The notes under the pieces are model-generated. The model did not search any database and was not told the DNA's origin. It saw only the letters and a program-made list of their open reading frames with translations. This document shows, piece after piece, positions 1-33,732 of a stretch of DNA of 38,124 bases (positions are counted from its first letter, which is position 1; every line of letters starts with the position of its first letter). The stretch is taken from assembly GCA_030550225.1 (NCBI GenBank), contig JAUQPV010000002.1, forward strand, positions 1-38,124, written 5' to 3'. Position numbers and translations under genes: made by a program. Source of the stretch: Acidobacteriota bacterium (GTDB lineage: Bacteria > Acidobacteriota > HRBIN11).

Positions 1-1
1 G

Positions 2-94
2 GTCGTGACCCGGACGACGGAAATCGACACGATGATTTCAGGCAAAAAATTCGTCTTTGAGGAAGAGTTGGCGCCTGAAGCCGAAAAGCCCTAA
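2..94 (+). CDS. 3' end of unidentified upstream gene (partial; ...TEIDTMISGKKFVFEEELAPEAEKP*)
   Basis: Frame is open from the window edge to TAA at 92-94. A strong intrinsic terminator begins 18 nt downstream. Only 30 codons are visible, so the product is not recognisable. Confidence 0.35.
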   Translation, partial: VVTRTTEIDTMISGKKFVFEEELAPEAEKP

Positions 95-111
95 GTGGTT
101 CCCCTCCCGCG

Positions 112-151
112 CCCGCCCCTCCCGGCCTCGTGCCGGGTCGGGGCGGGTTTT
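112..151 (+). terminator. Rho-independent terminator
   Basis: CCCGCCCC (112-119) pairs with GGGGCGGG (140-147). Inner stem CCCGGC/GCCGGG (121-126/132-137). Followed by TTTT at 148-151. Confidence 0.65.
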
Positions 152-248
152 AAGGAGCGCAGGCCTCTGGCCTGTGGGAGGGCAGACGTCCCGGTGGCCG
201 GGCCTCTGGCCGGCCAAGGGGTCCCCTGGAAAGGGGACGGAGGCGGAA

Positions 249-800
249 ATGTCGATTACGGTCACGGGATTGGGCAATCTGTTAATGGGCGATGAAGGCG
301 TGGGCGTCCACGCCGTACGGCTCTTGCGAGAGCGATTCGCCCGACCCGATGTCGCCTACCTCGACGGAGGCACCCTGGGCCTGAGCCTCCTGCCTTACTT
401 GGAGGAGGCAACCCATCTGCTATTCCTGGACGCCATCCGGGCGGACGCCCCGCCTGGGACCGTCCTCCGCGTGTCACTCCTCGACGGACCCACGCGGATC
501 CCCTTGAAGGTCTCAGCCCACGATATCGCCTTGCCCGACCTGGTCGCCCTCCTGAAGTTCCGGCGGGGCGAGGACCTCCGGGCTGTCGAGCTTTTGGGTG
601 TCGTCCCAGAGCGGATCGAACCCTCGACGGAACTTTCCTCGACGGTCCAGGCGAGCTTGCCGGACCTTATCTCTTGGGCCCTTCGAATTCTTCAACAGTG
701 GGGCGTCCTGGATCACCAGAGCCGTTCGGTTCGTGAGAATGGCGTCGAGGCGGTCTTTCCCACCGCCCGAAATAAAGGGCGAACGGCGAATAGCGAATAA
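249..800 (+). CDS. [NiFe]-hydrogenase maturation endopeptidase (HybD/HoxM/HupD family)
   Basis: ATG at 249 follows GGAGG. N-terminal MSITVTGLGNLLMGDEGVGVHA matches the GxGNxLxxDDGxG signature. About 183 aa, and located directly upstream of the hyp genes. Confidence 0.85.
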   Translation: MSITVTGLGNLLMGDEGVGVHAVRLLRERFARPDVAYLDGGTLGLSLLPYLEEATHLLFLDAIRADAPPGTVLRVSLLDGPTRIPLKVSAHDIALPDLVALLKFRRGEDLRAVELLGVVPERIEPSTELSSTVQASLPDLISWALRILQQWGVLDHQSRSVRENGVEAVFPTARNKGRTANSE

Positions 801-878
801 TGAACAGCAAATAGGTACCCCTTCCTACCTCCCGACCTGCCCATCTGCCGACCTGCCGACTGCCCATCTGCCCGATGC
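786..878. repeat. Degenerate tandem word arrays: heptamers GCGAATA-like (786-813), octamers CCNACCTG-like (821-878)
   Basis: Read directly: gcgaata gcgaata atgaaca gcaaata, then cctacctc ccgacctg cccatctg ccgacctg ... cccatctg. The 17-mer CGACCTGCCCATCTGCC (833-849) recurs at 6066-6082. Confidence 0.8.
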
Positions 879-881
879 CTT

Positions 882-912
882 GACCGCCGACGGCCGACCG
901 CGGTCGGCGGTC
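882..912 (+). other. Intercistronic GC hairpin upstream of hypC
   Basis: GACCGCCGAC (882-891) pairs perfectly with GTCGGCGGTC (903-912) around an 11-nt loop. There is no T-run, so it is more likely an mRNA structure than a terminator. Confidence 0.5.
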
Positions 913-945
913 TGGGAAAAATCGTCCTCCCCAGAGGAAGGACCT

Positions 946-1224
946 ATGTGCTTAGGCGTGCCGGGTCGAGTCGTCGAAGTCAACGGCCTCGTGGCCGTCG
1001 TCGATTTCTGGGGGACTCGCCGGAAGGTCCGGCTCGAGACGGTCGACCAGCCGGTTCAACCCGGTGATTACGTCTTGGTCCACGTCGGTTTCGCCATCCG
1101 GCGGATTCCGGAAGAGGAGATCGAGGAAACGCTGGCCTTCTACGACTCCGTCGTGCGGGCGGCTGAGAATGACTTAATGGGTGCAGACGTCCGGAGCGAG
1201 ATCGACGCCGCCCGGGGGGATTGA
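946..1224 (+). CDS. hypC: Hydrogenase assembly chaperone HypC/HupF
   Basis: Starts MCLGVPGRVVEV (invariant N-terminal Cys). 92 aa. RBS GAGGAAGG lies 4-11 nt upstream. Confidence 0.9.
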   Translation: MCLGVPGRVVEVNGLVAVVDFWGTRRKVRLETVDQPVQPGDYVLVHVGFAIRRIPEEEIEETLAFYDSVVRAAENDLMGADVRSEIDAARGD

Positions 1225-1226
1225 CC

Positions 1227-2366
1227 ATGGAAGCGGTCCGCGACGAGGGTGCATGGAAGCGGTTGGAATTTCGGGATCCCGAGCGGGTCCAGGCCCTGCG
1301 GCAGACCCTCCAGCGGCTGTGCGACCAGATCGGGCGGCCCGTATCGGTCATGCACGTCTGCGGGACCCACGAACAGAGTATCGCCCGTTTTGGCCTGCGG
1401 AGCCTCCTCCCCCGGAACCTGAACGTGTTTATGGGGCCCGGCTGTCCCGTCTGCGTGACGGACATGCCGGAGGTCGACGAGGCGGTGGCCCTGGCCCTTC
1501 AGGGCGTCATCGTCGCCACCTTTGGCGACATGTTCCGGGTCCCCGGGAGCGTGATGTCCCTGGCCGAGGCCAAGGCCCAGGGGGCCGACGTGCGGGTCGT
1601 CTACAGTCCCTGGGACGCCCTGCGGCTGGCCCAATCGACGGACCGGGACGTCGTCTTCTTCGCCACGGGCTTCGAGACGACCGCCGTCGCCACGGCCGCC
1701 GTGATCCTATCGAACCCGCCGTCGAACTTCTCGGTCCTGTCGGCCCACAAGTACATCCCGCCGGTCATGGAGATCATCGCCGAGATGCCCGATACCCGGG
1801 TGCAGGGCTTCTTAGCGGCCGGCCATGCGGCGACCATCACGGGGTGGAAGATCTTCGAACGGTTCGTCGAGCGCCACCGGATTCCCGTCGTCGTCGGGGG
1901 GTTCGAGCCCCTCGACATCCTGGCGGCCCTGGCCCAGTTAGTCGAACTCATCCGGGACGGCGACCTGCGGGTCGTCAATGCCTATCCCCGATGCGTCACG
2001 CCAGAAGGAAACCGTCAGGCCCAGCGTCTGCTCTGGGAGGTCTTCGAGACCGTCGGCGGCACCTGGCGCGGCATCGCCCACATCCCGAACGGCAACCTCC
2101 GGATTCGGTCGAAATATGCCGGGGTCGACGCCCGGCGGCGTTACGACATCGACGTGAGCGGCCTTCTGCAGGGAGCGCCGCCCCGGCTCACGCAGGAGTG
2201 CATCTGCGGGGACATCATGGCCGGGATCGCGTCCCCCTACGACTGCCGGCTGTTCGGGAAGGAGTGCACGCCTCAGAACCCCGTCGGAGCCTGCATGGTC
2301 AGTAGCGAGGGGACTTGCAAGATTTGGTACGAATACGGGGGACACGTCATCGTGGAGACTCCTTAG
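1227..2366 (+). CDS. hypD: Hydrogenase maturation factor HypD
   Basis: Motifs CGTHE, GPGCPVCV and GFETT are present. ATG at 1227 lies 3 nt after the hypC stop. An alternative TTG start at 1221 would overlap the hypC stop. Confidence 0.9.
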   Translation: MEAVRDEGAWKRLEFRDPERVQALRQTLQRLCDQIGRPVSVMHVCGTHEQSIARFGLRSLLPRNLNVFMGPGCPVCVTDMPEVDEAVALALQGVIVATFGDMFRVPGSVMSLAEAKAQGADVRVVYSPWDALRLAQSTDRDVVFFATGFETTAVATAAVILSNPPSNFSVLSAHKYIPPVMEIIAEMPDTRVQGFLAAGHAATITGWKIFERFVERHRIPVVVGGFEPLDILAALAQLVELIRDGDLRVVNAYPRCVTPEGNRQAQRLLWEVFETVGGTWRGIAHIPNGNLRIRSKYAGVDARRRYDIDVSGLLQGAPPRLTQECICGDIMAGIASPYDCRLFGKECTPQNPVGACMVSSEGTCKIWYEYGGHVIVETP

Positions 2367-2609
2367 CAGAGCCCTTTGACCCGTGAAAATCCCGATGGGA
2401 TCGGCTTTTCCGACCCTTCGAAAAATCGGTGCTCGGTGCTGGGTGTTGGGTGCTGGGTGTTGGGTGTTGGGTTCTTGAAAAAGGGACCTAACACCTAACA
2501 CCGAGCACCCAGCACCCAACACCAAACACCCATTCTGTCTGAAAAATCGTGCTTCCTGGGCGATGGAAAAGGCCGTCTTAATGCCGCTCTCATGAACTGA
2601 ACGGCCCTG
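2367..2609. repeat. Nested-palindromic repeat element, copy A (inverted relative to copies C and D)
   Basis: Begins CAGAGCC directly after the hypD TAG and ends ...GAACGGCCCTG. Core arms are a GGGTGYT heptamer run (2428-2473) and an RRCACCY run (2487-2531) around a TTCTTGAAAAAGGG loop. Flanking arms are alignable to the copies at 30734, 33488 and 36566. Confidence 0.85.
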
Positions 2610-2618
2610 TTAAGAGGG

Positions 2619-3401
2619 ATGGGGATGACGGGTCGGTTGCGAGTCGTCGTGATGGTCGGTCCCCGGGGCGAGGGTCTCGAGGCCCTGCTGGATTACGGTA
2701 CTCGGTCGCCGGACTATGCGATCGTCGGGGCCTTGGTGACGACCCCTGACAGCACGGCCGTCCCGGTCCTCGAGCGGTATGGCATCCCCTGGGTCTGCAA
2801 TGACATTCAGGCCTTCTACCGGGCGCGCCAGGCACCCGTCCGGGACCTTCAGTATCGACCGGACTACGACGACCAGAGTCTCCGGTACGTCGAGGCTTGG
2901 GCTCCGACGCACTTGGTCCTGTTTCGGTACATTTACATCGTGACGCCGGTCCTCTTGAGCGCCTTTCCCGGCCGGGTCCTGAACGTTCATGACGGGGACC
3001 TCACCCGACGAGACTCCACCGGACGACCCCTCTACCGTGGCCTTCACGCGACCCGGGACGCCATCCTCGACGGGGCGACGGCGACCCGCTCGACCGTGCA
3101 CATCGTCACCGAGGAAGTCGACATGGGTCCGCCGATTTTATTGTCGCCGGCCTATCCGGTCCATCGCCGCCTCGTCCGACAGGCGCGGTGGGCCGGCGCC
3201 CTGGACGTCCTGAAGGCTTACGCATACGCCCATCGGGAATGGATGATTCGGGACAGTTGGGGCAAGCTGATTCATACGGCCCTGACCTTGTGGTCGCAGG
3301 TTCCCTTACGGATCTTGGGCGACCGGGTCTTTTGGGGCGACCGGCCGGGTCCATGGGTCCTCCGGGCTTACATCGCCCGACGGGAGACAGCGGCACCATG
3401 A
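2619..3401 (+). CDS. PurN-type formyltransferase-fold protein (candidate HypX N-terminal-domain equivalent)
   Basis: LRVVVMVGPRGEGLEALLD N-terminus. LNVHDGDL sits where PurN has NIHPSLLP. TVHIVTEEVDMGPPIL matches the PurN VHFVTxxxDxGPII block. An alternative ATG at 2625 has better RBS spacing. The stop overlaps the next start (ATGA). Confidence 0.7.
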   Translation: MGMTGRLRVVVMVGPRGEGLEALLDYGTRSPDYAIVGALVTTPDSTAVPVLERYGIPWVCNDIQAFYRARQAPVRDLQYRPDYDDQSLRYVEAWAPTHLVLFRYIYIVTPVLLSAFPGRVLNVHDGDLTRRDSTGRPLYRGLHATRDAILDGATATRSTVHIVTEEVDMGPPILLSPAYPVHRRLVRQARWAGALDVLKAYAYAHREWMIRDSWGKLIHTALTLWSQVPLRILGDRVFWGDRPGPWVLRAYIARRETAAP

Positions 3402-4264
3402 AGGAAAAAGAAGGTGAGGTCGTCGAAGAACTCTACCACATCCGGGTCACCCGTCGAGACGCCATCGGGGTCATCACCCTGGACCGGCCCGAGCGGTTCA
3501 ACGCCCTGGACGTTCAGATGGCCCAGGACCTGCGCAAGGCGGCCCTCGCCTTGGCGCGAGACCGGACGATCCGATGCGTGATCCTGGCCGGCCACGAGCG
3601 GGTCTTCTGTAGCGGCGCCGACCTTCGGTACGTCCAGCAGGGCGGGGACGAAGCCGACTTCTCCTACCTCCAGCCGGAGGCCCGGGAGGTCCAGAGGAGC
3701 TACGGGGCGGCCTTCAAGCAGATCCTGGAATACCTCCACAGCACGATTTCCGAGATCCGACGGGCGCCCAAGCCCTTCATCGCCGCCGTCCGAGGCGTCG
3801 CCGCCGCCGGCGGCTTCGGCCTGGCGATGAGCTGTGACCTCGTCTATGCCTCGGAGGACGCCTGGTTTGAATGGGCCTATTCGAAAACGGGTCTCACGGG
3901 AGCCGAAAGCTCGACCTTTCTCCTGCCCCGCCTGATCGGCCTCCGGCGGGCCCTCGAGATGGCCTTCCTGAACCCCCGCCTGAGCGCCCAGGAAGCCTGG
4001 TCCCTGGGCCTGATCAACGGCGTCTTCCCCCAGGACCGGTTCGATGAAGAAGTCTGGCGGGTCGCCGAGCGACTCGCCGAAGGACCGACCCGGGCCTTTG
4101 GCATCACGAAGCGCCTCCTCAACGAGGCGGCCGGCATGGACCGTCTGGACGTCCACCTGGATAAGGAACTCCAGTTTCTGGCCGAAATCGCCGAGGGTGC
4201 CGACTTCTGGGAAGGCCTGCGAGCCTTCTTTGAAAAACGGAAGCCCCAGTTTCGGGGAGAGTGA
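3398..4264 (+). CDS. Enoyl-CoA hydratase/isomerase (crotonase) family protein (candidate HypX C-terminal-domain equivalent)
   Basis: ITLDRPERFNAL, FCSGADL and AAVRGVAAAGGFGLAMSCDL are crotonase signatures. ATG 3398 overlaps the upstream TGA (3399-3401). Confidence 0.8.
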   Translation: MKEKEGEVVEELYHIRVTRRDAIGVITLDRPERFNALDVQMAQDLRKAALALARDRTIRCVILAGHERVFCSGADLRYVQQGGDEADFSYLQPEAREVQRSYGAAFKQILEYLHSTISEIRRAPKPFIAAVRGVAAAGGFGLAMSCDLVYASEDAWFEWAYSKTGLTGAESSTFLLPRLIGLRRALEMAFLNPRLSAQEAWSLGLINGVFPQDRFDEEVWRVAERLAEGPTRAFGITKRLLNEAAGMDRLDVHLDKELQFLAEIAEGADFWEGLRAFFEKRKPQFRGE

Positions 4265-4279
4265 TCGTGGGTGTGATGG

Positions 4280-4369
4280 GAATTGCCAATTGCGGATTTG
4301 GGGATAAGAGGTGCAGGTCGGTTCTCCGAGGCTTTCCCCGCCCTGATGCCCAATCCGCAATTCGCAATC
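4280..4369. repeat. Intergenic inverted repeat built from CAATYCG-type heptamers
   Basis: GAATTGCCAATTGCGGATTTGGGG (4280-4303) faces CCCAATCCGCAATTCGCAATC (4349-4369) across a loop of about 45 nt. Confidence 0.75.
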
Positions 4370-4390
4370 TTTGAGATGGAGGGATAGGCG

Positions 4391-5443
4391 ATGGCCGGAA
4401 GCGTCCGATCTCTTCAGTGTCCGGTCCCGACGCTGACCCACCGCCAGGTCCTCCTGGGCCACGGAAGCGGGGGCCGGCTGATGCACGACCTCATCGAGGC
4501 CGTATTCCGCCCCCGGCTCCTGCCGGCGGACCTGACGTGCCTGAACGACGCCGCCTACTTTCGCGTCGCTGGCTTCCGCTTGGCTATCACGACGGATTCC
4601 TTTGTCGTCGACCCTATCTTCTTCCCGGGCGGTGACATCGGCCAACTGGCCGTCCACGGGACCGTCAACGACCTGGCCGTCAGCGGGGCCCGGCCCCTGG
4701 TCCTGAGCGCCGCCTTTATCCTCGAGGAAGGTTTCCCCATCGAGGACCTCGAGCGGGTCGTCGACTCGATGCGCGAGGCCAGCGCTCGGGTCGGCGTGCC
4801 TATCGTCACAGGCGACACGAAAGTCGTCCAACGGGGCAAGTGCGACCGAGTGTTCATCAACACGACGGGCGTCGGCGTCCTGATGACGGAGCGAGTCCTT
4901 TCGGCCGACCAAGCCCGACCGGGGGACCTGATCCTCCTGAATGGGGACATCGCCGCTCACGGCATCGCCATCCTGGCGGCCCGGGGAGAGCTCGAGTTGG
5001 ACACGCCCATCGTCTCGGACACGGCCCCCCTGCATACGTTGGTCGAGGCCATTTTAGAAGGTGACCCCGGGGTCCGTTGCATGCGGGACCTGACGCGGGG
5101 CGGGCTCGCCAGTGCCCTCAACGAAATCGCTCAGAGCTCGGGCGTGGGGATCCGTATCTGGGAAGACCGGATCCCCATTCGGGATGAGGTCCGAGGCGTC
5201 TGTGAGGTCCTGGGGCTCGACCCTTTGCATGTAGCGAACGAGGGAAAGCTGATCGCCGTCGTCGCCCGAGAGGACGCCGAGGCCGTCCTGGCCCGGATGC
5301 GGGCCCACCCCCTCGGTCGGGAGGCGGCCATCATCGGCGAGGTCGTCGAAGACGCCCGGTCGATGGTCCTCATGAAGACTCAAGTCGGGGGCTTCCGGGT
5401 CGTCGACATGCTGGCCGGTGAGCAGTTGCCCCGGATTTGCTAA
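4391..5443 (+). CDS. hypE: Hydrogenase maturation carbamoyl dehydratase HypE
   Basis: PurM-like body with the diagnostic C-terminal ...LPRIC*. RBS GGAGGGA lies 6 nt upstream. Confidence 0.92.
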   Translation: MAGSVRSLQCPVPTLTHRQVLLGHGSGGRLMHDLIEAVFRPRLLPADLTCLNDAAYFRVAGFRLAITTDSFVVDPIFFPGGDIGQLAVHGTVNDLAVSGARPLVLSAAFILEEGFPIEDLERVVDSMREASARVGVPIVTGDTKVVQRGKCDRVFINTTGVGVLMTERVLSADQARPGDLILLNGDIAAHGIAILAARGELELDTPIVSDTAPLHTLVEAILEGDPGVRCMRDLTRGGLASALNEIAQSSGVGIRIWEDRIPIRDEVRGVCEVLGLDPLHVANEGKLIAVVAREDAEAVLARMRAHPLGREAAIIGEVVEDARSMVLMKTQVGGFRVVDMLAGEQLPRIC

Positions 5444-5445
5444 GG

Positions 5446-5545
5446 GGTAGTGAGGCAATAAGGCCGTAAGGCGTGTCGGACAGTCAACCGTAGGGCCCTA
5501 TCTACCGCCTTATTGCCTTACTGCCCTATTGCCTGATTGCCTACT
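5446..5545. repeat. Intergenic inverted repeat built from GCCTNNTT octamers
   Basis: Right arm reads gccttatt gccttact gccctatt gcctgatt gcctactt (5508-5547). Left arm carries the complement words (gaggcaataaggccgtaaggcg, 5452-5473). Confidence 0.75.
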
Positions 5546-5558
5546 TAGGTATGCCATC

Positions 5559-5969
5559 ATGCATGAACTTTCGATCATGCAGGCCTTAGTCGATGCCGTC
5601 GAGGCGATCGTCCGAGAGCATGGGGCCCGGCGGGTCGTCCGGCTGGTCGTCGAGGTCGGCGAAATGTCCAACGTGATTCCCATGTATCTCCGGAATGCCT
5701 TCTTAGCCTTCCGGGAGGTGAAACCCTTCCTGGCCCAGGCCGAGCTGGAGATCCGTTTCGTCCCCCTGCAACTCCGGTGCGAATCCTGCGGCTTTGAGTT
5801 CCAGCCCCAGGGTTATCGATACCGCTGTGTCGAGTGCGGGGCGACCCAGGTCCGGGTCGTGCAGGGCGAGGAATTGCTCTTGCGGGACGTCGAGCTGGAG
5901 GTCGAATCCGATGACCCGTCTTGGCCGGTCGAACTGCCAAGTCATGGGGCCCCACGCTTCTGTGAATGA
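5559..5969 (+). CDS. hypA: Hydrogenase nickel insertion protein HypA
   Basis: Canonical MHELS start. Zinc site CESCG...CVECG. Carries a C-terminal extension of about 20 aa relative to typical HypA. Confidence 0.88.
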   Translation: MHELSIMQALVDAVEAIVREHGARRVVRLVVEVGEMSNVIPMYLRNAFLAFREVKPFLAQAELEIRFVPLQLRCESCGFEFQPQGYRYRCVECGATQVRVVQGEELLLRDVELEVESDDPSWPVELPSHGAPRFCE

Positions 5970-5974
5970 AGGCG

Positions 5975-6090
5975 GATAGGGGCATAACTGTAAGGGCGTG
6001 AGGACGGGACGGTCACCGGCGGCGTCAGGACAGAGGGGACGTCCGCGTCACTGCTGGCGTCCCGCCGACCTGCCCATCTGCCCAAGACCG
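5975..6090. repeat. Degenerate G-rich / C-rich octamer arms
   Basis: ggcggata ggggcata ... ggcgtgag gacgggac faces cccgccgacctgcccatctgcccaagacc. The C-rich arm shares the 17-mer CGACCTGCCCATCTGCC (6066-6082) with 833-849. Confidence 0.55.
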
Positions 6091-6131: not shown

Positions 6132-6803
6132 ATGGCGGAGATTCGAACCGTTCGAGTGATGGAAAGCCTCCTGAAGGCCAACGACTACGTGGCCCAACGC
6201 CTCCGGCAGGCGTGGGACCAGGGCCAGACTTTCGTCGTCAACCTGATATCGGCCCCGGGCGCCGGCAAGACGACCCTGCTGGAGGCGACCCTGCCGGTCC
6301 TGCTGAGCCGGTACCGCGTCGGCGTCCTGGAGGGCGACATCGAGACGGAGCGGGACGCCGAGCGGATCCGGGCCTTGGGCGTCGAGGCCGTCCAGGTCAC
6401 GACGGGCGGGACCTGTCACCTGGAAGCGCCCATGGTCGAGCAGGCCTGGCGCCTTATGGATAACGAGATCGACTTTCTGTTCATCGAGAACGTGGGTAAC
6501 CTCGTGTGTCCGGCGAGCTTCGACCTGGGGGAGCACCTCCGGGTCGTCCTGCTCTCGGTCCCCGAGGGGGATGACAAACCGGCCAAGTACCCCAAGGCCT
6601 TCCGGACAGCCCAGGCCCTGGTCATCACGAAGGCCGACCTGCTGGAGACGATGGACTTCTCGGTCGAGCGAGCCCGCCGGGAGGCCTTGGAGATTCAGCC
6701 CGAACTTCAGGTCTTCGTCGTGTCGGCCAAGACGGGCGTGGGGATTCCGGCATGGACGCAATTCCTGGAACAGCGACGACGGCAGACGTTTCCGGACGCT
6801 TGA
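6132..6803 (+). CDS. hypB: Hydrogenase nickel incorporation GTPase HypB
   Basis: APGAGKTTLL P-loop, GGTCHL and ENVGNLVCP motifs. ATG 6132 is preceded by AGAGGGAAG. A GTG at 6090 is also possible. No His-rich or CxxCGC N-terminus. Confidence 0.9.
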   Translation: MAEIRTVRVMESLLKANDYVAQRLRQAWDQGQTFVVNLISAPGAGKTTLLEATLPVLLSRYRVGVLEGDIETERDAERIRALGVEAVQVTTGGTCHLEAPMVEQAWRLMDNEIDFLFIENVGNLVCPASFDLGEHLRVVLLSVPEGDDKPAKYPKAFRTAQALVITKADLLETMDFSVERARREALEIQPELQVFVVSAKTGVGIPAWTQFLEQRRRQTFPDA

Positions 6804-9076
6804 GCGTCGAGCGCCTTCAAGTCCGAGTCCTGGGGGTCGTCCAGGGCGTCGGGTTCCGGCCCTTTGTGTATCGTCTGGCCTCAGAGTTGGGCCTGACGGG
6901 TTGGGTCAGTAACGACGGCCTCGGCGTCCTCATCGAGGTCGAGGGCCCGTCCCCGGCCCTCTTGGAATTCCTGGGACGTCTCCCCCGGGAGAAGCCGCCG
7001 CCGGCCTTTCTCTACGCCATCGACCATCGATTCCTCGAGCCCGTCGGATATTCGATTTTTACGATCCGGGAGAGTCAGCTTGGCGAAGCTCGCCGGGTCT
7101 GGGTCCTACCGGATTTGGCCGTCTGCGCCGCCTGTCGCCGAGAGGTCTTGGACCCGAGCGACCGTCGGTTCCGGTACCCCTTCACGAACTGCACCCACTG
7201 CGGCCCCCGGTTCACGATCATCGAGGACCTCCCCTACGATCGGCCCCGCACGTCCATGAAGGCTTTTCGGATGTGTCCCGATTGTGAACGGGAGTATCAC
7301 GACCCGAAGGACCGTCGGTTTCACGCCCAACCCAATGCCTGCCCCCGATGCGGGCCCCATCTGGAGTTCCGCACGCCTGACGGGACGCCTGTCGCCTGGG
7401 GCGACGAAGCCTTCTACCTGGCGGCCGAGAAGGTCCGGACCGGGGCGATCATCGCCCTGAAGGGTCTCGGCGGCTACCACTTGATCGTGGACGCCCGGAA
7501 CGAGCCGGCTGTCGCACGTCTTCGGGCTCGCAAGCGTCGGCCTTTCAAAGCGTTCGCCGTCATGTATCCCGACCTGGAGACCCTGCGTCGTCACGTGGAG
7601 GTCCCGTCTTTTGCGGAAGCCCTCCTGACGTCGCCGCAGGCGCCCATCCTGCTTCTGCCCCGGACGCCCGCCGGATGGCGGGAGATCGCACCCTCGGTCG
7701 CACCCCGGTCCCCCTACTTAGGCGTTTTCCTGCCCTACACGCCCCTGCACATCTTACTCCTGTACGAACTGGGCTTCCCCGTCGTGGCGACGTCGGGGAA
7801 CCTCTCCGACGAGCCGGTCCAGTATCGAGACGAGGAGGCCCTCCAGGCCCTGGCGGACCTCTGTGATGGCTTCCTCCTGCACGACCGACCGATCGTCCGC
7901 CATGCCGACGACTCGGTCCTTCAGGTCATCACCCGGCCCCGGGCCAAGCCCCAGATCCTGCGGCGGGCCCGGGGCTACACACCCCTGCCGGTCCTGGCGC
8001 CCCGCCCGCTCCCGCCCCTCCTCGCCCTGGGCGGTCACATGAACGCGACCTTCGCCCTGAGCCGGGACCGGGAGATCATCCTCTCCCAGCATATCGGCGA
8101 CCTGGATGGCTATGAGGCCCGTCAGGTCTACCGGCGGACGTTAGAGGACTTCTTACGCCTCTACGACGTTCATCCCCAGGCCGTTGTCCACGACCTCCAC
8201 CCGGACTATTTCACGACGCGCTTGGCTGAGGAGTGGGGTGGGCCCCGATTCGCCGTCCAGCACCACCACGCCCACCTGGCGGCCTGTATGCTGGAAAACC
8301 AGCTCGAAGGGACCGTCCTGGGCCTCACGTGGGACGGGACTGGCTATGGCCTGGACGGCACCGTATGGGGCGGAGAATTTCTGATGGGCGACCCCCGGGA
8401 TTTTCGGCGTGTCGCTTCCCTGTGGCCCTTCCGCCTCCCCACAGGCGAAAAGGCCGTCCGGGAACCCTGGCGGGTCGCCCTGGCCCTCTTATGGGAGAGC
8501 TTTGGGTCGGACTTTCCCCGAGACCTTCCCTTGTTCCGGGAGATTCCGAAGCGGGCCGTCGAACTCGTCTTGCAGGTCCTTCGGAAGGGCCTTCTGAGCC
8601 CCGTCACGACCAGCATGGGCCGTCTCTTCGACGGCGTCAGCGCCCTGCTCGGCATCTCTTTCTTCAACACCCATCAGGCCCAGTCGGCCCAACTCCTGGA
8701 GTACGCCGCCTGGCAGTATGGCCCGGGGGCGCATCCTCTTCCCCTTCCCCTCCGGGAGGCCGACATCCTGCGGCTGGATTGGCGAGAACTCATCCGAGCC
8801 CTGGTCGATCGATTCCGGCGGGGCGCTCCCCCGGAAGCCCTGGCGGCCGCCTTCCACGACGCCCTCGTCCGGGCCGCCGTGGCCGTCGCCGAGCGCCTCG
8901 GCGTCCCAAGGGTCGTGATGGCCGGCGGCGTGTTCTGCAACCGCTATCTCACGGAGGCCCTCCTGACCGAACTGGAGGCGCGAGGTCTCCAGGGTTTCAT
9001 CCACACCCAGCTCCCTCCGACGGACGGGAGCCTCGCCGTCGGCCAACTGTGGGTCGCCGCCCATCGCCTCGAATAG
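6752..9076 (+). CDS. hypF: Carbamoyltransferase HypF
   Basis: Acylphosphatase-like VQGVGFRPFVYRLA. Two zinc-finger pairs (CAACRREV...CTHCGPRF and CPDCEREY...CPRCGP). YrdC- and Kae1-like C-terminal parts. A TTG at 6800 that overlaps the hypB stop is an alternative start. Confidence 0.9.
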   Translation: MDAIPGTATTADVSGRLSVERLQVRVLGVVQGVGFRPFVYRLASELGLTGWVSNDGLGVLIEVEGPSPALLEFLGRLPREKPPPAFLYAIDHRFLEPVGYSIFTIRESQLGEARRVWVLPDLAVCAACRREVLDPSDRRFRYPFTNCTHCGPRFTIIEDLPYDRPRTSMKAFRMCPDCEREYHDPKDRRFHAQPNACPRCGPHLEFRTPDGTPVAWGDEAFYLAAEKVRTGAIIALKGLGGYHLIVDARNEPAVARLRARKRRPFKAFAVMYPDLETLRRHVEVPSFAEALLTSPQAPILLLPRTPAGWREIAPSVAPRSPYLGVFLPYTPLHILLLYELGFPVVATSGNLSDEPVQYRDEEALQALADLCDGFLLHDRPIVRHADDSVLQVITRPRAKPQILRRARGYTPLPVLAPRPLPPLLALGGHMNATFALSRDREIILSQHIGDLDGYEARQVYRRTLEDFLRLYDVHPQAVVHDLHPDYFTTRLAEEWGGPRFAVQHHHAHLAACMLENQLEGTVLGLTWDGTGYGLDGTVWGGEFLMGDPRDFRRVASLWPFRLPTGEKAVREPWRVALALLWESFGSDFPRDLPLFREIPKRAVELVLQVLRKGLLSPVTTSMGRLFDGVSALLGISFFNTHQAQSAQLLEYAAWQYGPGAHPLPLPLREADILRLDWRELIRALVDRFRRGAPPEALAAAFHDALVRAAVAVAERLGVPRVVMAGGVFCNRYLTEALLTELEARGLQGFIHTQLPPTDGSLAVGQLWVAAHRLE

Positions 9077-9077
9077 A

Positions 9078-9305
9078 AGACCATCGGCTGTCGACCACAG
9101 ACCATGGACCTGTTTCGGAGGCCTAGTTCGCATCGTCTCGAGACGAGGGGTATTCCGGTGACTCTGAACTCATCTCAAAACCCTCTCCCTGGGGGAGGGG
9201 GTAGGCTGAGGGCCTTGATCCAGAGCTTCTCTCTCACTGAGATCAGGGACTTTTGAGACGAGTTCTCTGTCAGGTCTGGGGTCTATGGTCCGTGGTCTGC
9301 GGTCT
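9078..9305. repeat. Long intergenic inverted repeat with GGTCTNN-heptamer arms
   Basis: AGACCATCGGCTGTCGACCACAGACCATGGACCTG (9078-9112) faces CAGGTCTGGGGTCTATGGTCCGTGGTCTGCGGTCT (9271-9305). An inner pair TCTCAAAA/TTTTGAGA is also present. Confidence 0.75.
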
Positions 9306-9313
9306 CTTTTGGA

Positions 9314-9357
9314 CATCTTGCATTCCGCATCCTGCATCTTGTATCTTGGATCCTGCC
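9314..9357. repeat. CATCYTG heptamer array upstream of the cNMP/FHA gene
   Basis: catcttg cattccg catcctg catcttg tatcttg gatcctg, read directly. Ends 22 nt before ATG 9380. Confidence 0.8.
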
Positions 9358-13254: not shown

Positions 13255-13268
13255 AGGCCGTATCCTCT

Positions 13269-13347
13269 CGGCAACTCGGCAGTTCGGCAATTCAGAACCC
13301 GGATTCCGGGGTTCCCGAATCCCCGAACTCCCGAATTACCGAACTGC
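13269..13347. repeat. Intergenic inverted repeat built from CGGCANTT / GAANTNCC octamers
   Basis: cggcaact cggcagtt cggcaatt ... faces gaatcccc gaactccc gaattacc gaactgcc. GGCAGTTCGGCAATTC (13278-13293) pairs with GAATTACCGAACTGCC (13332-13347). Confidence 0.8.
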
Positions 13348-14478
13348 CTAAGCCCCGACGATGACCTGCCGGGCGACCTCGCCAGTAGCCAAAGCGTCCA
13401 TCGCTTCGTTGACGTCCGACAGGGCGATCGTCCGGCTCAGGAGGACGTCCGCCGGCAGGAGACCGGCCTGATAGAGGGCCAGCCACCGGGGAATGTCCCG
13501 CCGGGGGACGGAAGAACCCATGTAGGACCCCCGGATGGTCCGCTCTTCACCGACGATCGTCACGGCCGGGACTGAAAACATCCGGCTCGGATGGGGAAGC
13601 CCGATCGTCACCGTCGTCCCGCCCCGGCGGGTCGCCTGATAGGCCTGCTGGAGGACCTGCTCGGAGCCGACGGCCTCAAAGACGTAGTGGGCTCCGCCAC
13701 CCGTGACGTCCCGAACGGCCTGGACGGGGTCGTCTCGACGGGCGTGAACGGCATGCGTGGCGCCGACCTGCCGGGCCAGGTCAAGCTTCGTCTCGACGAC
13801 GTCCACGGCGACGATAGGCCAGGCTCCGGCCAGACGAGCCCCCATGACGACGCTGAGGCCGACGCCGCCCAGGCCGAACACGGCAACCGACGTCCCCGGC
13901 TCGACCCGGGCCGTGTTCACGACGGCCCCGAGGCCCGTCAACAGCGCACAGCCAAACAGGGCCGCCTTCTCGAAGGGCACCGAGGGGTCAATCCGGACAA
14001 GCGATTCCTGGGCCGCGACCGTATAGCGCGAAAACGCCGAAACGCCCAGATGGTGATGTAAGGGGCGCCCCTGGGCGTCCCGGAATCGGACGGACCCGTC
14101 CAGGAGTGTGCCGGCGGCGTTCGCCCGATTGCCGTTTTCACATAAAGCCGGTCGACCGGTCGCGCAGGGGATACAGCGGCCACAGGCCGGGACAAAGGAA
14201 AATACGACGTGGTCACCCGGCTTCAGGTCCTGCACGCCGGGGCCGACCTCCCGGACGATGCCGGCCGCTTCGTGCCCCAACACCATCGGCACCGGCCGGG
14301 GTCGGGAACCGTCGACGACCGAGAGGTCCGAATGGCAAATCCCGGCGGCGGTGACCTCGACGAGGACCTGCCCGGGACCGGGTCCTTCCAGTTCGACTTC
14401 CTCGATGACGAGGGGCTGGGACACCCGGTAAGGTGAGGGCTTGCCCATCTCGTACAAGACGGCGGCGACCGTCTTCAT
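13348..14478 (-). CDS. Zinc-dependent alcohol dehydrogenase (MDR family)
   Basis: GICHSD, GHEAAGIVREVGPGV and structural-zinc CGRCIPCATGRPALC motifs. ATG 14478 is preceded by GAGGAG. Confidence 0.88.
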   Translation of the reverse strand: MKTVAAVLYEMGKPSPYRVSQPLVIEEVELEGPGPGQVLVEVTAAGICHSDLSVVDGSRPRPVPMVLGHEAAGIVREVGPGVQDLKPGDHVVFSFVPACGRCIPCATGRPALCENGNRANAAGTLLDGSVRFRDAQGRPLHHHLGVSAFSRYTVAAQESLVRIDPSVPFEKAALFGCALLTGLGAVVNTARVEPGTSVAVFGLGGVGLSVVMGARLAGAWPIVAVDVVETKLDLARQVGATHAVHARRDDPVQAVRDVTGGGAHYVFEAVGSEQVLQQAYQATRRGGTTVTIGLPHPSRMFSVPAVTIVGEERTIRGSYMGSSVPRRDIPRWLALYQAGLLPADVLLSRTIALSDVNEAMDALATGEVARQVIVGA

Positions 14479-14494
14479 TCGAAACTCCTCGTAG

Positions 14495-14545
14495 CGAATA
14501 GCGAGTAGGGAATAGTGACAGTTACCGTTCGCCATCCGCCATTCG
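14495..14545. repeat. Intergenic hairpin built from AGCGAAT-type heptamers
   Basis: CGAATAGCGAGTAGGGAATAG (14495-14515) faces CCGTTCGCCATCCGCCATTCG (14525-14545). GCGAATAGCGA (14494-14504) also occurs at 786-796. Confidence 0.7.
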
Positions 14546-14620
14546 GCGGACCACCCCTCTCTTGCATCCCGCACCGGGACACCCCATCCATGGGCCTCCG
14601 GTGCCAGCAGGACCAAAGCC

Positions 14621-24024: not shown

Positions 24025-24504
24025 ATGCAGGTCGTGAGCATACCCCTGCAGGCGGAATGGCTCGTATGCGCTGACACGATTAAAGTCACGACGGACCGGA
24101 AGATCGGCCTCTACAACCTGACGGACCGCATCGTGGCCTTTATCGAAAAGACGGGGCTTCAGGAGGGTATCGTCATCGCCACCACGCTTCACACGACGAC
24201 GGCCATCTTCATCAACGAATTCCAGGACGCCCTCTTACGGGATATCCAGCAGGTCTTGGAAGACTTGGTCCGGGAGGACCAGTTCTACTACCACAACTGC
24301 GACGACTACTCGGATTGTGAGCGGAGGAACGCCACGGCCCACCTGCGCTCGCTTCTCCTGGGCCACCAGGTCATCGTCCCCGTCCATCAGGGCCGTCCTG
24401 CCGTCGGGACGTGGCAGAACATCATCCTGGCCGAACTCGACGGGCCCCGGACCCGTTCCATTTACCTCCAGGCGATGGGCCTCCCCCGCGACAGTCGGAT
24501 GTAG
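24025..24504 (+). CDS. yjbQ: YjbQ/UPF0047 family protein (secondary thiamine-phosphate synthase-like)
   Basis: LHTTTAIFINEFQD and NATAHLRSLLLG family motifs. ATG 24025 is preceded by GGGGAGG. Confidence 0.8.
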   Translation: MQVVSIPLQAEWLVCADTIKVTTDRKIGLYNLTDRIVAFIEKTGLQEGIVIATTLHTTTAIFINEFQDALLRDIQQVLEDLVREDQFYYHNCDDYSDCERRNATAHLRSLLLGHQVIVPVHQGRPAVGTWQNIILAELDGPRTRSIYLQAMGLPRDSRM

Positions 24505-24580
24505 TCTTTCGTCCATCGGCTGGGATGAGAAGAAGGGCGACGGAATCCGTTCTGCCGGTCGCGGCCCCAGACCTGCAAGG

Positions 24581-26200
24581 ATGCGAACGCAACCGCTGCA
24601 CTATGAAGCCGACGTGGTGATCGTCGGAGGCGGCCTGGCCGGCCTGGTCACCGCCCTGGAACTGCTTGGAAAGGGCCGTCACGTGGTCCTGTTCGACCGC
24701 GACGTGCCAGAACGGTTGGGCGGCCTGGCGCGCGAGTCGTTCGGCGGCATATTCCTGGTCGATACGCCCCACCAGCGTCGGCTGGGAATTCGGGACAGTC
24801 CGGACCTGGCCTGGGCCGACTGGCAACGCTGTGCCCGTTTCGGACCGGACGACTCCTGGCCCCGTCGCTGGGCGCAACTCTACTGCGAGCGCTCTATACC
24901 CCTGATCTATGAGTTCCTGGACCGGCTGGGGGTGCGTTTTCTGCCGTTGGTGCACTGGCCGGAACGGGGGCTTTACGAACCCCTGAATACGGTACCCCGC
25001 TGGCATATCGCCTGGGGCACGGGCTACGAGATCGTCGCCCGGGTCATCGCCGCCTTAGAGGCCCATCCGAATCGCCGCCGGCTGGAGCTCTACTTCCGAC
25101 ATGCCGTGACGGACCTCGAACAGGCAGGCGGCCGGGTCGTGGGCGTGCGGGGCGTGGTGGAGCCAGATGGCTTGCCGTTTGAGGCGAGGGCATCGGCCGT
25201 CGTCTTGGCCTCGGGCGGCATCTGCGGGGGCGACTTGCGCAAGCTCCGAGAATGCTGGTACCGCCCCTGGGGCGACCCGCCCCAGAAGCTCCTGAACGGT
25301 TCCCACCGCTACGCCGACGGGTTATTGCACGACCGAGCGGCTGCGCTGGGAGCGCACCTGACGCACTTAGACCTGCAATGGCACTACCCGGCCGGTGTGC
25401 ACCACCCGGCCCGGCGTCGCCCTGACGACGGTCTGAGTCTGGTACCGCCGCGCTCGGCCCTCTGGTGCAATGCCCTTGGCCGCCGCATCGGTCCGCCTCC
25501 GCTGGTGGCCTATACCGATACCCGCTGGCTCGTCGAGCAGGTCCTACGTCAGCCCGGACAGTACAGTTGGCTTGTGCTCAATTACAAGATTGCCTTGCGG
25601 GAGCTGGCCGTCTCGGGCTCCGACTATATGGAGGCGTTACGCTATAAAAAACGACTCCGCCTGCTCTGGGAGCTCCTGCACGGCCATCACCGGCTCGTGC
25701 GACGACTTATCGACGAATGTCCGGACGACTTCGTAGTCGCCGACACCCTGGAAGAACTTATCGAAGGCATGAATGCCCGGAGTCTGTTCGGCCTTCGGGT
25801 CGATGGCGAGGGGCTGACACGGGACATCCAGGCCTACGACGCAATGATCGCCCGGGGCCCAGCTTTCTTCAACGACGAGCAATTGCGGCGGCTGATGAAC
25901 TTCCGCACTTACCGCGCCGACCGGCTCCGTCTGTGCCGCTTTCAGCCAATCCTCGACCCGAAGGCCCGTCCGCTCATCGCAATCCGCTGTTTCATCCTGA
26001 GTCGCAAGAGCTTAGGCGGGCTGAAAACGAACCTGGAGGGACAGGTCCTCCGTCCCGACGACACGCCGATCCCGGGGCTGTACGCCGTGGGCGAGACGGC
26101 CGGCTTTGGCGGCGGGGGCATCCATGGGCAGGGCTCCCTGGAAGGGACGTTTCTGGGCGCCTGCATCCTCACGGCTCGGCTTACCGCCCAAAACCTGTAA
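24581..26200 (+). CDS. FAD-binding dehydrogenase (KstD/fumarate-reductase-like flavoprotein, COG3573 type)
   Basis: DVVIVGGGLAGL dinucleotide-binding N-terminus and C-terminal GLYAVGETAGFGGGGIHG. 539 aa from ATG 24581. Confidence 0.8.
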   Translation: MRTQPLHYEADVVIVGGGLAGLVTALELLGKGRHVVLFDRDVPERLGGLARESFGGIFLVDTPHQRRLGIRDSPDLAWADWQRCARFGPDDSWPRRWAQLYCERSIPLIYEFLDRLGVRFLPLVHWPERGLYEPLNTVPRWHIAWGTGYEIVARVIAALEAHPNRRRLELYFRHAVTDLEQAGGRVVGVRGVVEPDGLPFEARASAVVLASGGICGGDLRKLRECWYRPWGDPPQKLLNGSHRYADGLLHDRAAALGAHLTHLDLQWHYPAGVHHPARRRPDDGLSLVPPRSALWCNALGRRIGPPPLVAYTDTRWLVEQVLRQPGQYSWLVLNYKIALRELAVSGSDYMEALRYKKRLRLLWELLHGHHRLVRRLIDECPDDFVVADTLEELIEGMNARSLFGLRVDGEGLTRDIQAYDAMIARGPAFFNDEQLRRLMNFRTYRADRLRLCRFQPILDPKARPLIAIRCFILSRKSLGGLKTNLEGQVLRPDDTPIPGLYAVGETAGFGGGGIHGQGSLEGTFLGACILTARLTAQNL

Positions 26201-26221
26201 TCTTTCAGGCCGGGTCGACCC

Positions 26222-27970
26222 ATGCAGGGGAAAAGGAGCGGAGCCTGGCTGATTCGTTATGCACTGGAACGACTGCCGGTGCCCTTCACGTTTGGCATCC
26301 CCGGCGTGCACGTGACGGAGCTCTACGACGAGCTGGGGCAGAGCGACCGCGTGCGACCGGTGCTCGTCACGCATGAAGGCGGCGGCGCCTTTATGGCCGA
26401 CGCCGTCAGCCGTACGGCGCCTGACCGTATCGGGGCCCTCGCCATCGTCCCGGCGGCCGGAGCCGCACTGGCCATGGGCGGTCTGGGCGAGGCCTACCTG
26501 GCGGGCGTGCCGCTCCTGGTCATCGCGGGCGGCGTCCGTACCGACGTGCCGTATCGCTTCCAGGTCCATGAAATCGACCAGGGACGACTGGTCCGAGCTG
26601 TCACGAAAGGATTCTGGCGCGTGCTACGTCATGTCGACATCGTACCGACCATCTTCGAGGCCTACCGGACGGCCGTCACGGGCGTACCCGGCCCTGTCTT
26701 CGTCGAGGTACCGGCGAACGTACAGCTCTTTCGGGACGAAGTGCCGGCCCTGCCGACTTTCCAGCCTCCGCCCCCGCCGGAGGCGCCGGACGACATGCTT
26801 ATCGAAGAAGCCGCCCGTGTGCTGGCCTCAGCCGAGCGACCCGGCATTTTCGTCGGATGGGGCGCCGTCGACGCTACCGAAGCGCTTGTGGGAATCGCCG
26901 AACGGTTGGGCGCGCCGGTCGCCACCACGTTACAGGGCCTGAGTGCCTTCCCGGGCCACCATCCGCTCTATGCCGGCATGGGCTTCTCCCCGGCGGCCGT
27001 ACCGGGGGCCGAACGGGCCTTCCGGGACTGCGATGCGCTCCTGGCCGTCGGGACCCGCTTTGCCGAGATTCCGACGGGGAGCTTTAGCGTGCGCGTGCCC
27101 GAAGCGCTTGTCCATGTCGACCTCGACCCGCAGGTCCTCGGGGCGAACTATCCGGCCCGAGTGGCCGTCGCAGGCGACAGCCGCGTGGTATTGCCCCGCC
27201 TGCTGGAAGCGCTACGCGACCTGAAGGTCGACCGCCGCGAGCGACGTGAGGCCGTGGCCCGGCAACTAAGGGCCGACAAGCAGGCCTATCGCGAAGCCTG
27301 GTACCGACACGACAGCGGCCGTCGCGTGAATCCGGCCCGGTTTTTCGATGCCCTACGGGCCGTATTACCCGACGAGGCCATCGTGACGGTGGACAACGGC
27401 AACCACACATACTTGACAGCCGAGCTGTTCGAGGTACGGCGACCACGCACGCTCATCGTACCCAGCGACTTCAACTGTATGGGCTATGCCGTGCCGGCGG
27501 CCGTCGGTGCCCGCTTGGCCCATCCCGACCGGCCCGTCGTGGCCATCGTAGGCGACGGCGCCTTTCTCATGACCGGCTTCGAGTTACTGACAGCTCGGCG
27601 CATGAAGGTCGGTGTGGTCTGCTGTGTCTTCCATGACGGCGAGCTGAGCCAGATCTCCCAGGGCCAGGCGGTCGCCTACAACCGGAAGACCTGCACCGTG
27701 ATCGGCGACGTACGGTTCGAAGGGATCGCCCAGGCTGTAGGGGCCCGTTACGTCCTGCTCACGGGCGATACGGCGGCCATGCGACGCATGCTCCAAGAGG
27801 CGCTGGCGTGGGCGGCCGACGGTGACTCCGTGATCGTCGAGGTGCCTATCGACTATAGCCGGCGCACCCGGTTCACTCAGGGCGTGGTGAAGACCGTAAT
27901 GGCCCGTTTCCCGACCGGCGACCGGCTGCGCTTTGTAGGCCGTGCTCTCTGGCGTCGGTTGTGGGGATAA
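26222..27970 (+). CDS. Thiamine-diphosphate-dependent enzyme (acetolactate-synthase-like fold)
   Basis: N-terminal PYR domain (GIPGVHVTELYD), ThDP-binding GDGAFLMTGFELLTA motif. 582 aa. Confidence 0.85.
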   Translation: MQGKRSGAWLIRYALERLPVPFTFGIPGVHVTELYDELGQSDRVRPVLVTHEGGGAFMADAVSRTAPDRIGALAIVPAAGAALAMGGLGEAYLAGVPLLVIAGGVRTDVPYRFQVHEIDQGRLVRAVTKGFWRVLRHVDIVPTIFEAYRTAVTGVPGPVFVEVPANVQLFRDEVPALPTFQPPPPPEAPDDMLIEEAARVLASAERPGIFVGWGAVDATEALVGIAERLGAPVATTLQGLSAFPGHHPLYAGMGFSPAAVPGAERAFRDCDALLAVGTRFAEIPTGSFSVRVPEALVHVDLDPQVLGANYPARVAVAGDSRVVLPRLLEALRDLKVDRRERREAVARQLRADKQAYREAWYRHDSGRRVNPARFFDALRAVLPDEAIVTVDNGNHTYLTAELFEVRRPRTLIVPSDFNCMGYAVPAAVGARLAHPDRPVVAIVGDGAFLMTGFELLTARRMKVGVVCCVFHDGELSQISQGQAVAYNRKTCTVIGDVRFEGIAQAVGARYVLLTGDTAAMRRMLQEALAWAADGDSVIVEVPIDYSRRTRFTQGVVKTVMARFPTGDRLRFVGRALWRRLWG

Positions 27971-30733: not shown

Positions 30734-30948
30734 CACAGCCGTTCGGTCCATGAGAATCCTGATGGATTCGGCTTTTCCGACCCTTCGAGAAATCGGTGTT
30801 CGGTGTGGGGTATTGGGTTCTTGAAAAAGGGCCTGAAACCTAACACCCAACACCTGACACCCGTCCTCCGCCTTGCTTGAAAAATCGCCATCCTCCCAGG
30901 GTCGGCAGGGCTGAATCCATCCGGGTTCTCACGGGCTAAACGGCTCTG
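30734..30948. repeat. Nested-palindromic repeat element, copy B (variant)
   Basis: CACAGCCGTTCGGTCCATGAGAAT... to ...GGGTTCTCACGGGCTAAACGGCTCTG. Shorter heptamer core (ggtgttcggtgtggggtattgggtt / aacctaacacccaacacctgacaccc). Confidence 0.85.
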
Positions 30949-33502: not shown

Positions 33503-33732
33503 GAATGGCGTCGGAACGACCTTTTCCATCGCCCGGGAAGCACGATGTTTCAGACAGAATGGGTGTCGGGTGTTGGGTGCTGGGTGCTCGGTATTAGGTG
33601 TTAGGTCCCTTTTTCAAGAACCCAACACCCAACACCTAACACCCAGCACCCAGCACCCAGCACCGAGCACCGATTTTTCGAGGGGTCGGAAAGGCTGAAT
33701 CCATACGGGTTTCCACGAACCGAACGGCTCTG
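33488..33732. repeat. Nested-palindromic repeat element, copy C
   Basis: CAGATCGGCCCGTGAGAATGGCGTC... to ...CCACGAACCGAACGGCTCTG. GT-heptamer arm 33561-33605, AC-heptamer arm 33620-33671. Confidence 0.85.

Follow-up and report, generated by a model that had tools for sequence, protein, structure and literature searches.

Several kinds of short, dispersed, non-coding repeats are known in bacteria, and three groups of them are close to the repeat family described here. Correia (CREE/NEMIS), RUP and ERIC elements are 100-300 bp long and non-coding with terminal inverted repeats of about 25 nt, number over 100 in a genome, located at gene ends and within operons, where they are co-transcribed, form long RNA hairpins, differ in presence between strains and have TA-rich flanks (in part after PMC10969869), and the present family is like them in all these respects. 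A REP is a 20-40-nt imperfect palindrome with a GTAG (or CGTC) tag (PMC3733652). The BIMEs and REPINs of enterobacteria and pseudomonads consist of few short modules in alternating orientation, found as singletons, inverted pairs and clusters; they are extragenic, of high copy number and likely moved in trans, with copies of one genome more alike than orthologues, and the family here resembles them in these features too. Heptamer repeats (STRR) of heterocystous cyanobacteria were reportedly described by Mazel et al. in 1990. The STRRs, the GGGNATC repeats of Xanthomonas and Nostoc and the TAACTGA repeats of Beggiatoaceae share with the present arrays that they are intergenic tandem repeats of exactly 7 nt, with several unrelated unit families per genome, variable unit number and a bias to the spaces between aligned genes (PMC4692102, PMC4679880).

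The stretch of DNA analysed here (the window, 38,124 nt) carries genes of hydrogenase maturation (hycI-hypC-hypD, and hypE, hypA, hypB and hypF) and of the H4MPT pathway (mch, ftr and a GHMP-kinase-like gene). In the GTDB taxonomy, HRBIN11 ranks as a class within the Acidobacteriota (PMC11778308). Mch of the window was 95% identical to that of 'bacterium HR11' (GCA_002898535.1), with a more distant match labelled Acidobacteria, and HypC was identical to HypC of HR11. The sequencing runs containing the window sequence were hot-spring metagenomes. Identity and synteny suggest that the source organism is a close relative of HR11. A planctomycete origin, to which the H4MPT genes might have pointed, was set aside on account of these matches.

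Between hypD and hypE a formyltransferase-like gene (2619-3401) and an enoyl-CoA-hydratase-like gene (3188/3398-4264) were found, and this pair was kept in all fetched relatives. HypX, the aerobic CO-ligand synthase of [NiFe]-hydrogenase maturation, is usually a single fused protein, and we take the pair together to be like a split HypX. A HEPN / nucleotidyltransferase (MNT-like) gene pair (34734-35469), likely a toxin-antitoxin system, lies between mch and ftr; it was also present in HR11 and was not found in the more distant relatives L011 and L013 (the compared loci are cited by number). In addition, FAD-binding oxidoreductase and thiamine-pyrophosphate enzyme genes (24317-27970) were located between SDR and PrmC-like genes, a place taken by a YjbQ gene in HR11 and other relatives.

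The repeat family has inverted ends, (T)TAR followed by CAGAGCCGTTCGGNNNNTGAGAA, and two such ends with their arms enclose complementary GGGTGYT heptamer arrays and a small loop. Both the shared terminal inverted repeats and the heptamer core claimed in the initial annotation were borne out: the 23-nt terminal pattern CAGRGCCGTTCGGNNNNTGAGAA gave eight matches in the window at three mismatches or fewer (0.01 expected from shuffles), and double GGGTGYT heptamers gave 35 (0.95 expected). An alignment of 15 ends, window and HR11 combined, yielded the consensus (N)T-N-A-(R), then CAGAGCCGTTCGG NNNN TGAGAA, then one of three related arms. The type 1 arm reads TGGCGTC..GCCTTTTCCATCGCCCGGRAAGCACGATGTTTCAGACAGAAT and the type 2 arm CCCGNATGGATTCAGCCTTTCCGACCCTTCGAAAAATC, while type 2b is identical to type 2 through CCGACCC and continues as ..GGAGGATGRCGATTTYTCAAGCA. 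One arm of type 1 and one of type 2, the composition previously given for every copy, held for copies A, C and D; copy B combines type 2 with type 2b and so has the arm-2 kind at both ends. Copies A, C and D could be aligned with one another at about 90% over 87-167 nt, and B was linked to them through its ends in the repeat search.

All four copies reported earlier for the 38 kb were present, and a fifth, copy E, was added. Copy E (717-930, plus strand) is a rearranged, one-ended form between hycI and hypC, composed of a terminal repeat (717-739), the start of arm 1 (740-772), a GCGAATA array (786-814), CTGCCCAT/CTGCCGA arrays (827-873), a GACCGCC palindrome (882-908) and the inner motif GGGAAAAATCGTCCTCCCC (914-932), and it lacks the right terminal repeat. 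Copy A (2363-2613, minus strand) lies between hypD and the formyltransferase-like gene, and repeat alignment agreed that it is inverted relative to C and D. Read on the plus strand it consists of TTAG, terminal repeat (2367-2389), arm 2 (2390-2427), G-rich heptamers (2428-2472), loop (2473-2485), C-rich heptamers (2486-2531), arm 1 (2532-2586), terminal repeat (2587-2609) and TTAA. Copy B (30734-30948, minus strand), between an LplA-like gene and a gene of unknown function, contains a terminal repeat (30734-30756), arm 2 (30757-30793), a G-rich array (30794-30818), a loop, a C-rich array (30834-30862), the inner motif with arm 2b (30863-30925) and a terminal repeat (30926-30948).

Copy C (33488-33732, plus strand) is situated between the convergent HisF-like and mch genes, with a truncated terminal repeat (33488-33506), arm 1 (33507-33560), G-rich heptamers (33561-33606), a loop, C-rich heptamers (33620-33671), arm 2 (33672-33709) and a terminal repeat (33710-33732). 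Copy D had been placed at 36566-36844. The element is there, between the GHMP-kinase-like and ftr genes, while its complete unit covers 36566-36795 (plus strand), with a terminal repeat (36566-36588), arm 1 (36589-36642), a short G-rich array (36643-36661), a loop, a long C-rich array (36676-36734), arm 2 (36735-36772) and a terminal repeat (36773-36795). The remainder is a separate solo inverted end (36800-36844, minus strand) made of a terminal repeat and the start of arm 1, which abuts copy D after TTAG and pairs with the left end of D over 46 nt with 80% complementarity. Arm types 1, 2 and 2b were combined differently among copies A-E and in HR11, and solo ends and a 1-kb cluster were also present.

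The two arrays within a copy are complementary to each other, with the outermost units CGGTGCT common to the copies and a variable number of inner units; in copy D they are unequal, 2.5 units on one arm and nine on the other. Copies A-D were predicted to fold as long imperfect hairpins (dG -108 to -159 kcal/mol, z -6.7 to -9.6 relative to dinucleotide shuffles), in agreement with the earlier description of the whole unit as one hairpin. The copies are 215-280 bp long and their ORFs are read-throughs only; the read-through peptide had no match in the protein database. A coding gene was ruled out, since every frame contained stops or low-complexity read-through, and a CRISPR-like array was ruled out by 7-nt units without spacers.

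The inverted repeat reaches 3-5 nt outward into the flanks (TTAG/TGAG/CTAA and similar), so the element ends carry stop codons. Copy A does begin its terminal repeat at 2367, directly after the hypD stop as had been described, and because of this outward extension the stop itself (TAG, 2364-2366) would be supplied by the element's own end. Likewise the TGA stop of the HisF-like gene (33500-33502) lies inside copy C, in its truncated terminal repeat.

The abundance of the family was estimated from Logan contigs of four hot-spring runs for copy D, plus one run for copy A. In run X2 the flanks of copy D had a depth of about 36, arm 2 about 6,500-7,100 and arm 1 about 2,800-3,150; in run X9 the flanks of copy A had a depth of about 312, and the element bins stood at 34,275 and 22,596. 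Arm depth was about 70-190 times that of the flanking genes in metagenome assemblies of the same organism, as expected from the suggestion that the family is abundant genome-wide. This corresponds to roughly 70-190 copies of the arms per genome, and the family is put at roughly 100-200 copies, approximate numbers because they come from summed assembler word depths of metagenome contigs and not from a closed genome. About 200-350 contigs per run matched the element (230-295 per run for copy D), mostly continuing into unrelated flanks, and unique contigs terminated inside it, so that assemblies of HRBIN11-type organisms fragment. Additional copies of the family were observed within HR11 loci. 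An assembly artefact was ruled out, as the junctions were reproduced exactly in independent assemblies of several runs.

No named family could be assigned to the ends, as had been supposed. Rfam covariance models gave no match at the gathering score and only chance miRNA-hairpin matches below it. In BLAST searches of plasmid and phage collections the family ends had no match and only the heptamer core was matched, by direct, non-palindromic arrays in cyanobacteria and Streptomyces, namely (ACCCAAC)n on Tolypothrix and Microchaete plasmids and (CACCCAG)n on a Streptomyces plasmid. The terminal ends had no match among viral contigs. A scan of genome contigs, a set without the source genome and HR11, with the terminal pattern revealed six single matches in unrelated phyla, about the chance expectation. 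The strict terminal pattern had none in metagenome contigs, and the arm-2 pattern recovered nothing there but site B of the window itself, in a contig of 1 kb.

Syntenic loci of relatives were compared by blastn and by eye. The search for empty sites proposed in the initial annotation was successful at all five places: sites A and E were empty in two relatives each, D in three, B in one and C in two. At site D, 357 nt between the aligned blocks of the window correspond to 16 nt in HR11 (a 19-nt intergenic spacer), and L011 and L013 had no member of the family there. L014 and L016 lack the element at sites A and E, and the genes on either side overlap there or almost touch; in L014, whose HypD is 94% identical, hypD overlaps the next gene as ATGA, and hycI and hypC overlap as well. 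Site C was empty in L011 and L013, and site B was empty in L011 and reduced to a solo remnant of one end in L013.

Where the orthologous site was filled, the junctions were kept (at B and C also the outermost bases of the element) and the arms and cores were entirely different. At site A, HR11 keeps the CCTTAG junction around an unrelated 128-nt interior with YGTTCGG units; at site E it keeps the end and arm 1 with GTGACGA units; at site B both junctions remain, including an unusual CTGTG end, and enclose GGCAGAT octamers and a type 1 arm; at site C the truncated end CAGATCGGCCCGTGAGAA is kept with an interior of TCGGCAG/TTCGGGA arrays. Where window and HR11 cease to be homologous, the break falls within the terminal repeats for B and C and at the junction for A. 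Site E had at least four structures among strains or contigs with identical HypC: the window form, the HR11 form, a third in which only CACAGCCG of the end was left (with a related form without any of it), and a fourth with a different upstream gene and the breakpoint within the arrays. In L028 (1-784, against window 400-945), HypC is identical and another gene, on the opposite strand, takes the place of hycI; as the breakpoint is within the copy E arrays, the repeats apparently serve as rearrangement breakpoints. These comparisons show that the element was gained and lost at defined sites and that interiors were apparently often traded between copies, the breakpoints lying in segments which the copies share. 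Part of the interior replacement could be due to independent insertions into a hot spot.

Hairpins with tandem 7-8-nt arms of other sequence, without the family ends, were distributed in many other intergenic regions of the window (4283-4372, 5444-5547, 9090-9356, 13262-13358 and 14488-14550). Their units included AATTGCGG, GCCTTATT, GGTCTRT/CATCYTG, TTCGGCA/TTCCCGA and GCGAATA. Tandem Repeats Finder revealed arrays of period 7-8 in about ten intergenic regions with about eight recurring unit families, and about half of the longer intergenic regions of the window bear 7-8-nt arrays. Heptamer hairpins of other sequence were also found in the relatives. A second, unrelated repeat family (..CCCTCTCCCTGGGGGAGGGGGTAGGSTGAGGGCC..TGATCCAGAGCTTCTCTCTCACTGAGATCAGGG..) was observed at 9168-9265 of the window and at 1035-1125 of HR11 locus L022, in non-orthologous places, and a form related to it takes the place of copy E in some strains (L024/L025, upstream of hypC). 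L014, which lacks A and E, has its own two-copy element (7430-7580 and 13990-14125) with GGATGCA heptamer arms around a GC-rich centre, so related lineages carry different heptamer-hairpin families.

The G-rich array was the 5' arm in seven of eight independent unit families (window, L009, L014 and L022), the GGTCTAT/GACCATA family with reversed polarity being the sole exception, and because the hairpins are palindromic this holds on both strands. In copies A, C and D at least four G3 tracts spaced 4 nt apart make up a canonical quadruplex motif, and G-rich heptamer repeats of Xanthomonas and Nostoc, with the same bias to the spaces between aligned ORFs, form quadruplexes in vitro (PMC4692102). 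It might thus be thought that the 7-8-nt G-clusters themselves are functional, as quadruplexes or as arrays for a periodic nucleic-acid-binding protein, and that the ends are incidental, a polarity with the G-rich arm 5' in most hairpins being in favour of it. However, members with identical ends have units without G3 tracts (GCGAATA, GTGACGA, GGCAGAT), the same strand also bears the complementary C-rich arm, which speaks for a hairpin (heptamer core hairpins have dG of -34 to -84 kcal/mol), and the unit diversity is too great for a single sequence-specific binder, which leaves this account highly improbable.

Another possibility is that the heptamer and octamer arrays are cassettes installed or exchanged between fixed ends by a dedicated mechanism. 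It is allowed by three observations: unrelated unit families at orthologous copies whose flanking genes are 83-96% identical, the polarity of the G-rich array on both strands in most hairpins, and a 44-nt array module (CCTCCCGACCTGCCCATCTGCCGACCTGCCGACTGCCCATCTGCC) that is 100% identical between copy E of the window (829-872) and the C site of HR11 (L009, 10988-11031), two sites in different genomes that are not orthologous to each other. The G-rich 5' polarity is the geometry to be expected from an extension of two 3' ends, each by G-rich repeats, followed by their head-to-head joining. Such a mechanism seems very unlikely; were it true, there would be an enzyme writing short tandem repeats into bacterial DNA, and with it an origin for STRR-type heptamer repeats generally.

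Transcription through copy A was followed as sense-strand depth over the hyp operon in a stranded hot-spring metatranscriptome (X27), the RNA runs X21 and X26 being too shallow. The depth was 5-9 upstream of copy A, 9-16 on its left arm (inflated by other copies), 0 across the hairpin apex (2467-2504), 5-11 on its right arm and 12-16 downstream, and four reads, with the loose end at 36798, join the right end of A to the downstream gene. Thus copy A is co-transcribed with its operon. The possible role in termination mentioned in the initial annotation did not survive for this copy, because sense RNA continues past A at equal or greater depth and reads cross the right junction. An intrinsic terminator at A was ruled out in addition by the lack of a U tract, and a terminator scan of positions 1-6000, a range in which A is the only complete copy, revealed no terminator-like site at it. 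Arms of other copies were transcribed in both orientations.

The central gap in coverage may come from RNase cleavage, from reverse-transcription or library bias on the 44-bp stem, or from strain differences. Cleavage would fit a host-selected cis RNA element, in which operon-internal hairpins set mRNA stability or processing, through RNase III or RNase E entry or a block to 3' exonucleases, or uncouple the translation of adjacent genes, and abundance would reflect regulatory recruitment. The neighbours of the five window copies are co-directional or convergent in every case and never divergent, hairpin potential was retained across elements despite differing heptamer sequence, and Correia and ERIC elements are cut by RNase III and RNase E (PMC10969869). 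Nevertheless, orthologous sites are empty in close relatives with identical operon layout, so the element is dispensable there, and its interior is swapped wholesale instead of being conserved. A library artefact of the stem, or reads of variant strains that failed to map, could also explain the dip in coverage, read ends did not pile up at copy A in X27, and the read-through evidence comes from locus A, loci B and D being weakly expressed in this metatranscriptome. Host selection as the reason for the family is therefore regarded as quite unlikely.

As stated earlier, the family is without a transposase of its own: the window has no gene for a transposase, integrase or reverse transcriptase (most of its large ORFs had ordinary Pfam matches), no mobility gene was listed in the gene tables of the fetched relatives, and an autonomous element with the family ends was not found in about 70 kb of the lineage (the 38-kb window and about 33 kb of HR11). 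In many contigs the flank consensus was TTAA, CTAA or ATAA before CAGAGCC on one side, and CTG before NTAAGG on the other. One HR11 copy has ATAA on either side (ATAA/ATAA), whereas copy A has TTAG and TTAA, B has CTGA and CTCA, and C has TTTA and CTAA. At B (TGA/TCA) and C (TTA/TAA) the trinucleotides run inverted rather than direct, so the flanking T-N-A may belong to the terminal repeat, and the empty site of L014 has no TA at the A junction. With TTAA/YTAR-type flanks and the ATAA/ATAA copy on one side and the inversion at B and C on the other, a 2-4-bp TA/YTAR target duplication is possible, and the flanks read equally well as an extension of the inverted repeat. Target duplications of this kind are typical of DDE enzymes of the IS630 or IS5 type.

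The inverted flanks leave room for a REPIN/BIME-type system, in which the ends would be single-strand substrates of an HUH tyrosine transposase (RAYT or TIRYT), each end would consist of a conserved tetranucleotide and a small hairpin, and inverted end pairs would move or arise as hairpins without target duplication. A direct duplication is not evident, ends are found single, in inverted pairs and clustered (copy D with its solo end, and the 1-kb cluster at L022 541-1605), and TIR-flanked tyrosine transposases with matching TIR repeat families are known specifically in Acidobacteria (Di Nocera et al., PMC3733652). On the other hand, the ends begin (T)TAR then CAGAGCC and do not carry the GTAG or CGTC tag of REPs; the small hairpin GGTTC-GTGA-GAACC, a 5-bp palindrome, occurs only in arm-2-type ends and is not obvious in those of the arm-1 type; neither the window nor the gene tables of the fetched relatives include a Y1 transposase gene; and the TTAA/YTAR consensus with the ATAA/ATAA copy is equally compatible with DDE-type duplication. 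This system is held to be unlikely, with some chance left to it.

The account preferred here, with moderate confidence, is that of a non-autonomous MITE/BIME-like mosaic repeat family that is mobilised in trans and that recombination reshuffles; its host is a thermophilic acidobacterium of the HR11/HRBIN11 lineage. The copies would be moved by a transposase encoded elsewhere, which is best guessed to be a DDE enzyme with TA or YTAR targets and might alternatively be a REP-associated or TIR-associated tyrosine transposase. Interiors would be swapped among copies via ectopic recombination, gene conversion or re-insertion into resident copies. Array length would drift by slippage, although the order of variant units is conserved in the 44-nt module, unlike the prediction of free slippage, which counts against that part of the mechanism. 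New stop codons, lost gene overlaps and long, possibly processed mRNA hairpins would then be by-products for the host, and not the raison d'être of the family.

A very abundant, uncatalogued repeat family with unusually fast modular turnover is thus documented in HRBIN11, a class of thermophilic Acidobacteriota that has hardly been studied. Gene ends are rewritten by the element in operons of hydrogenase maturation and H4MPT C1 transfer, where it brings new stop codons and breaks translationally coupled overlaps. Its strain-level polymorphism is visible in public metagenomes and gives a handle on the origin and turnover of heptamer arrays. In practical terms the family matters only modestly, unless a regulatory role or a dedicated mechanism can be demonstrated.

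Compared with the known systems, the family joins two phenomena which are usually separate, transposon-like inverted-repeat elements and STRR-like heptamer arrays. Like prokaryotic MITEs it is short and non-coding, with terminal inverted repeats, many dispersed copies and insertion polymorphism among close relatives, which agrees with the MITE-like or REP/BIME-like nature first proposed for it. It differs from Correia, RUP and ERIC elements in its unrelated end sequence and its host, an uncultured acidobacterium; its centre is made of paired complementary heptamer arrays where theirs is unique sequence, and its copies trade arms and cores but keep the outermost ends. With REPINs and BIMEs it has in common the modular mosaic with alternating orientation and single, paired or clustered ends; it differs in lacking the GTAG/CGTC tag, in its larger unit (about 60-90 nt of end and arm), in having no RAYT gene found nearby and in linkers that are tandem heptamer arrays. 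Intergenic 7-nt tandem arrays of several unit families per genome are found here as among the STRRs, whereas here complementary inverted array pairs form a hairpin stem between conserved transposon-like ends, in another phylum. By sequence it belongs to none of the three groups; by analogy it is a family that would work like a Correia/ERIC-type MITE, is built like a BIME mosaic, and has a core like the heptamers of STRRs and of Xanthomonas and Nostoc.
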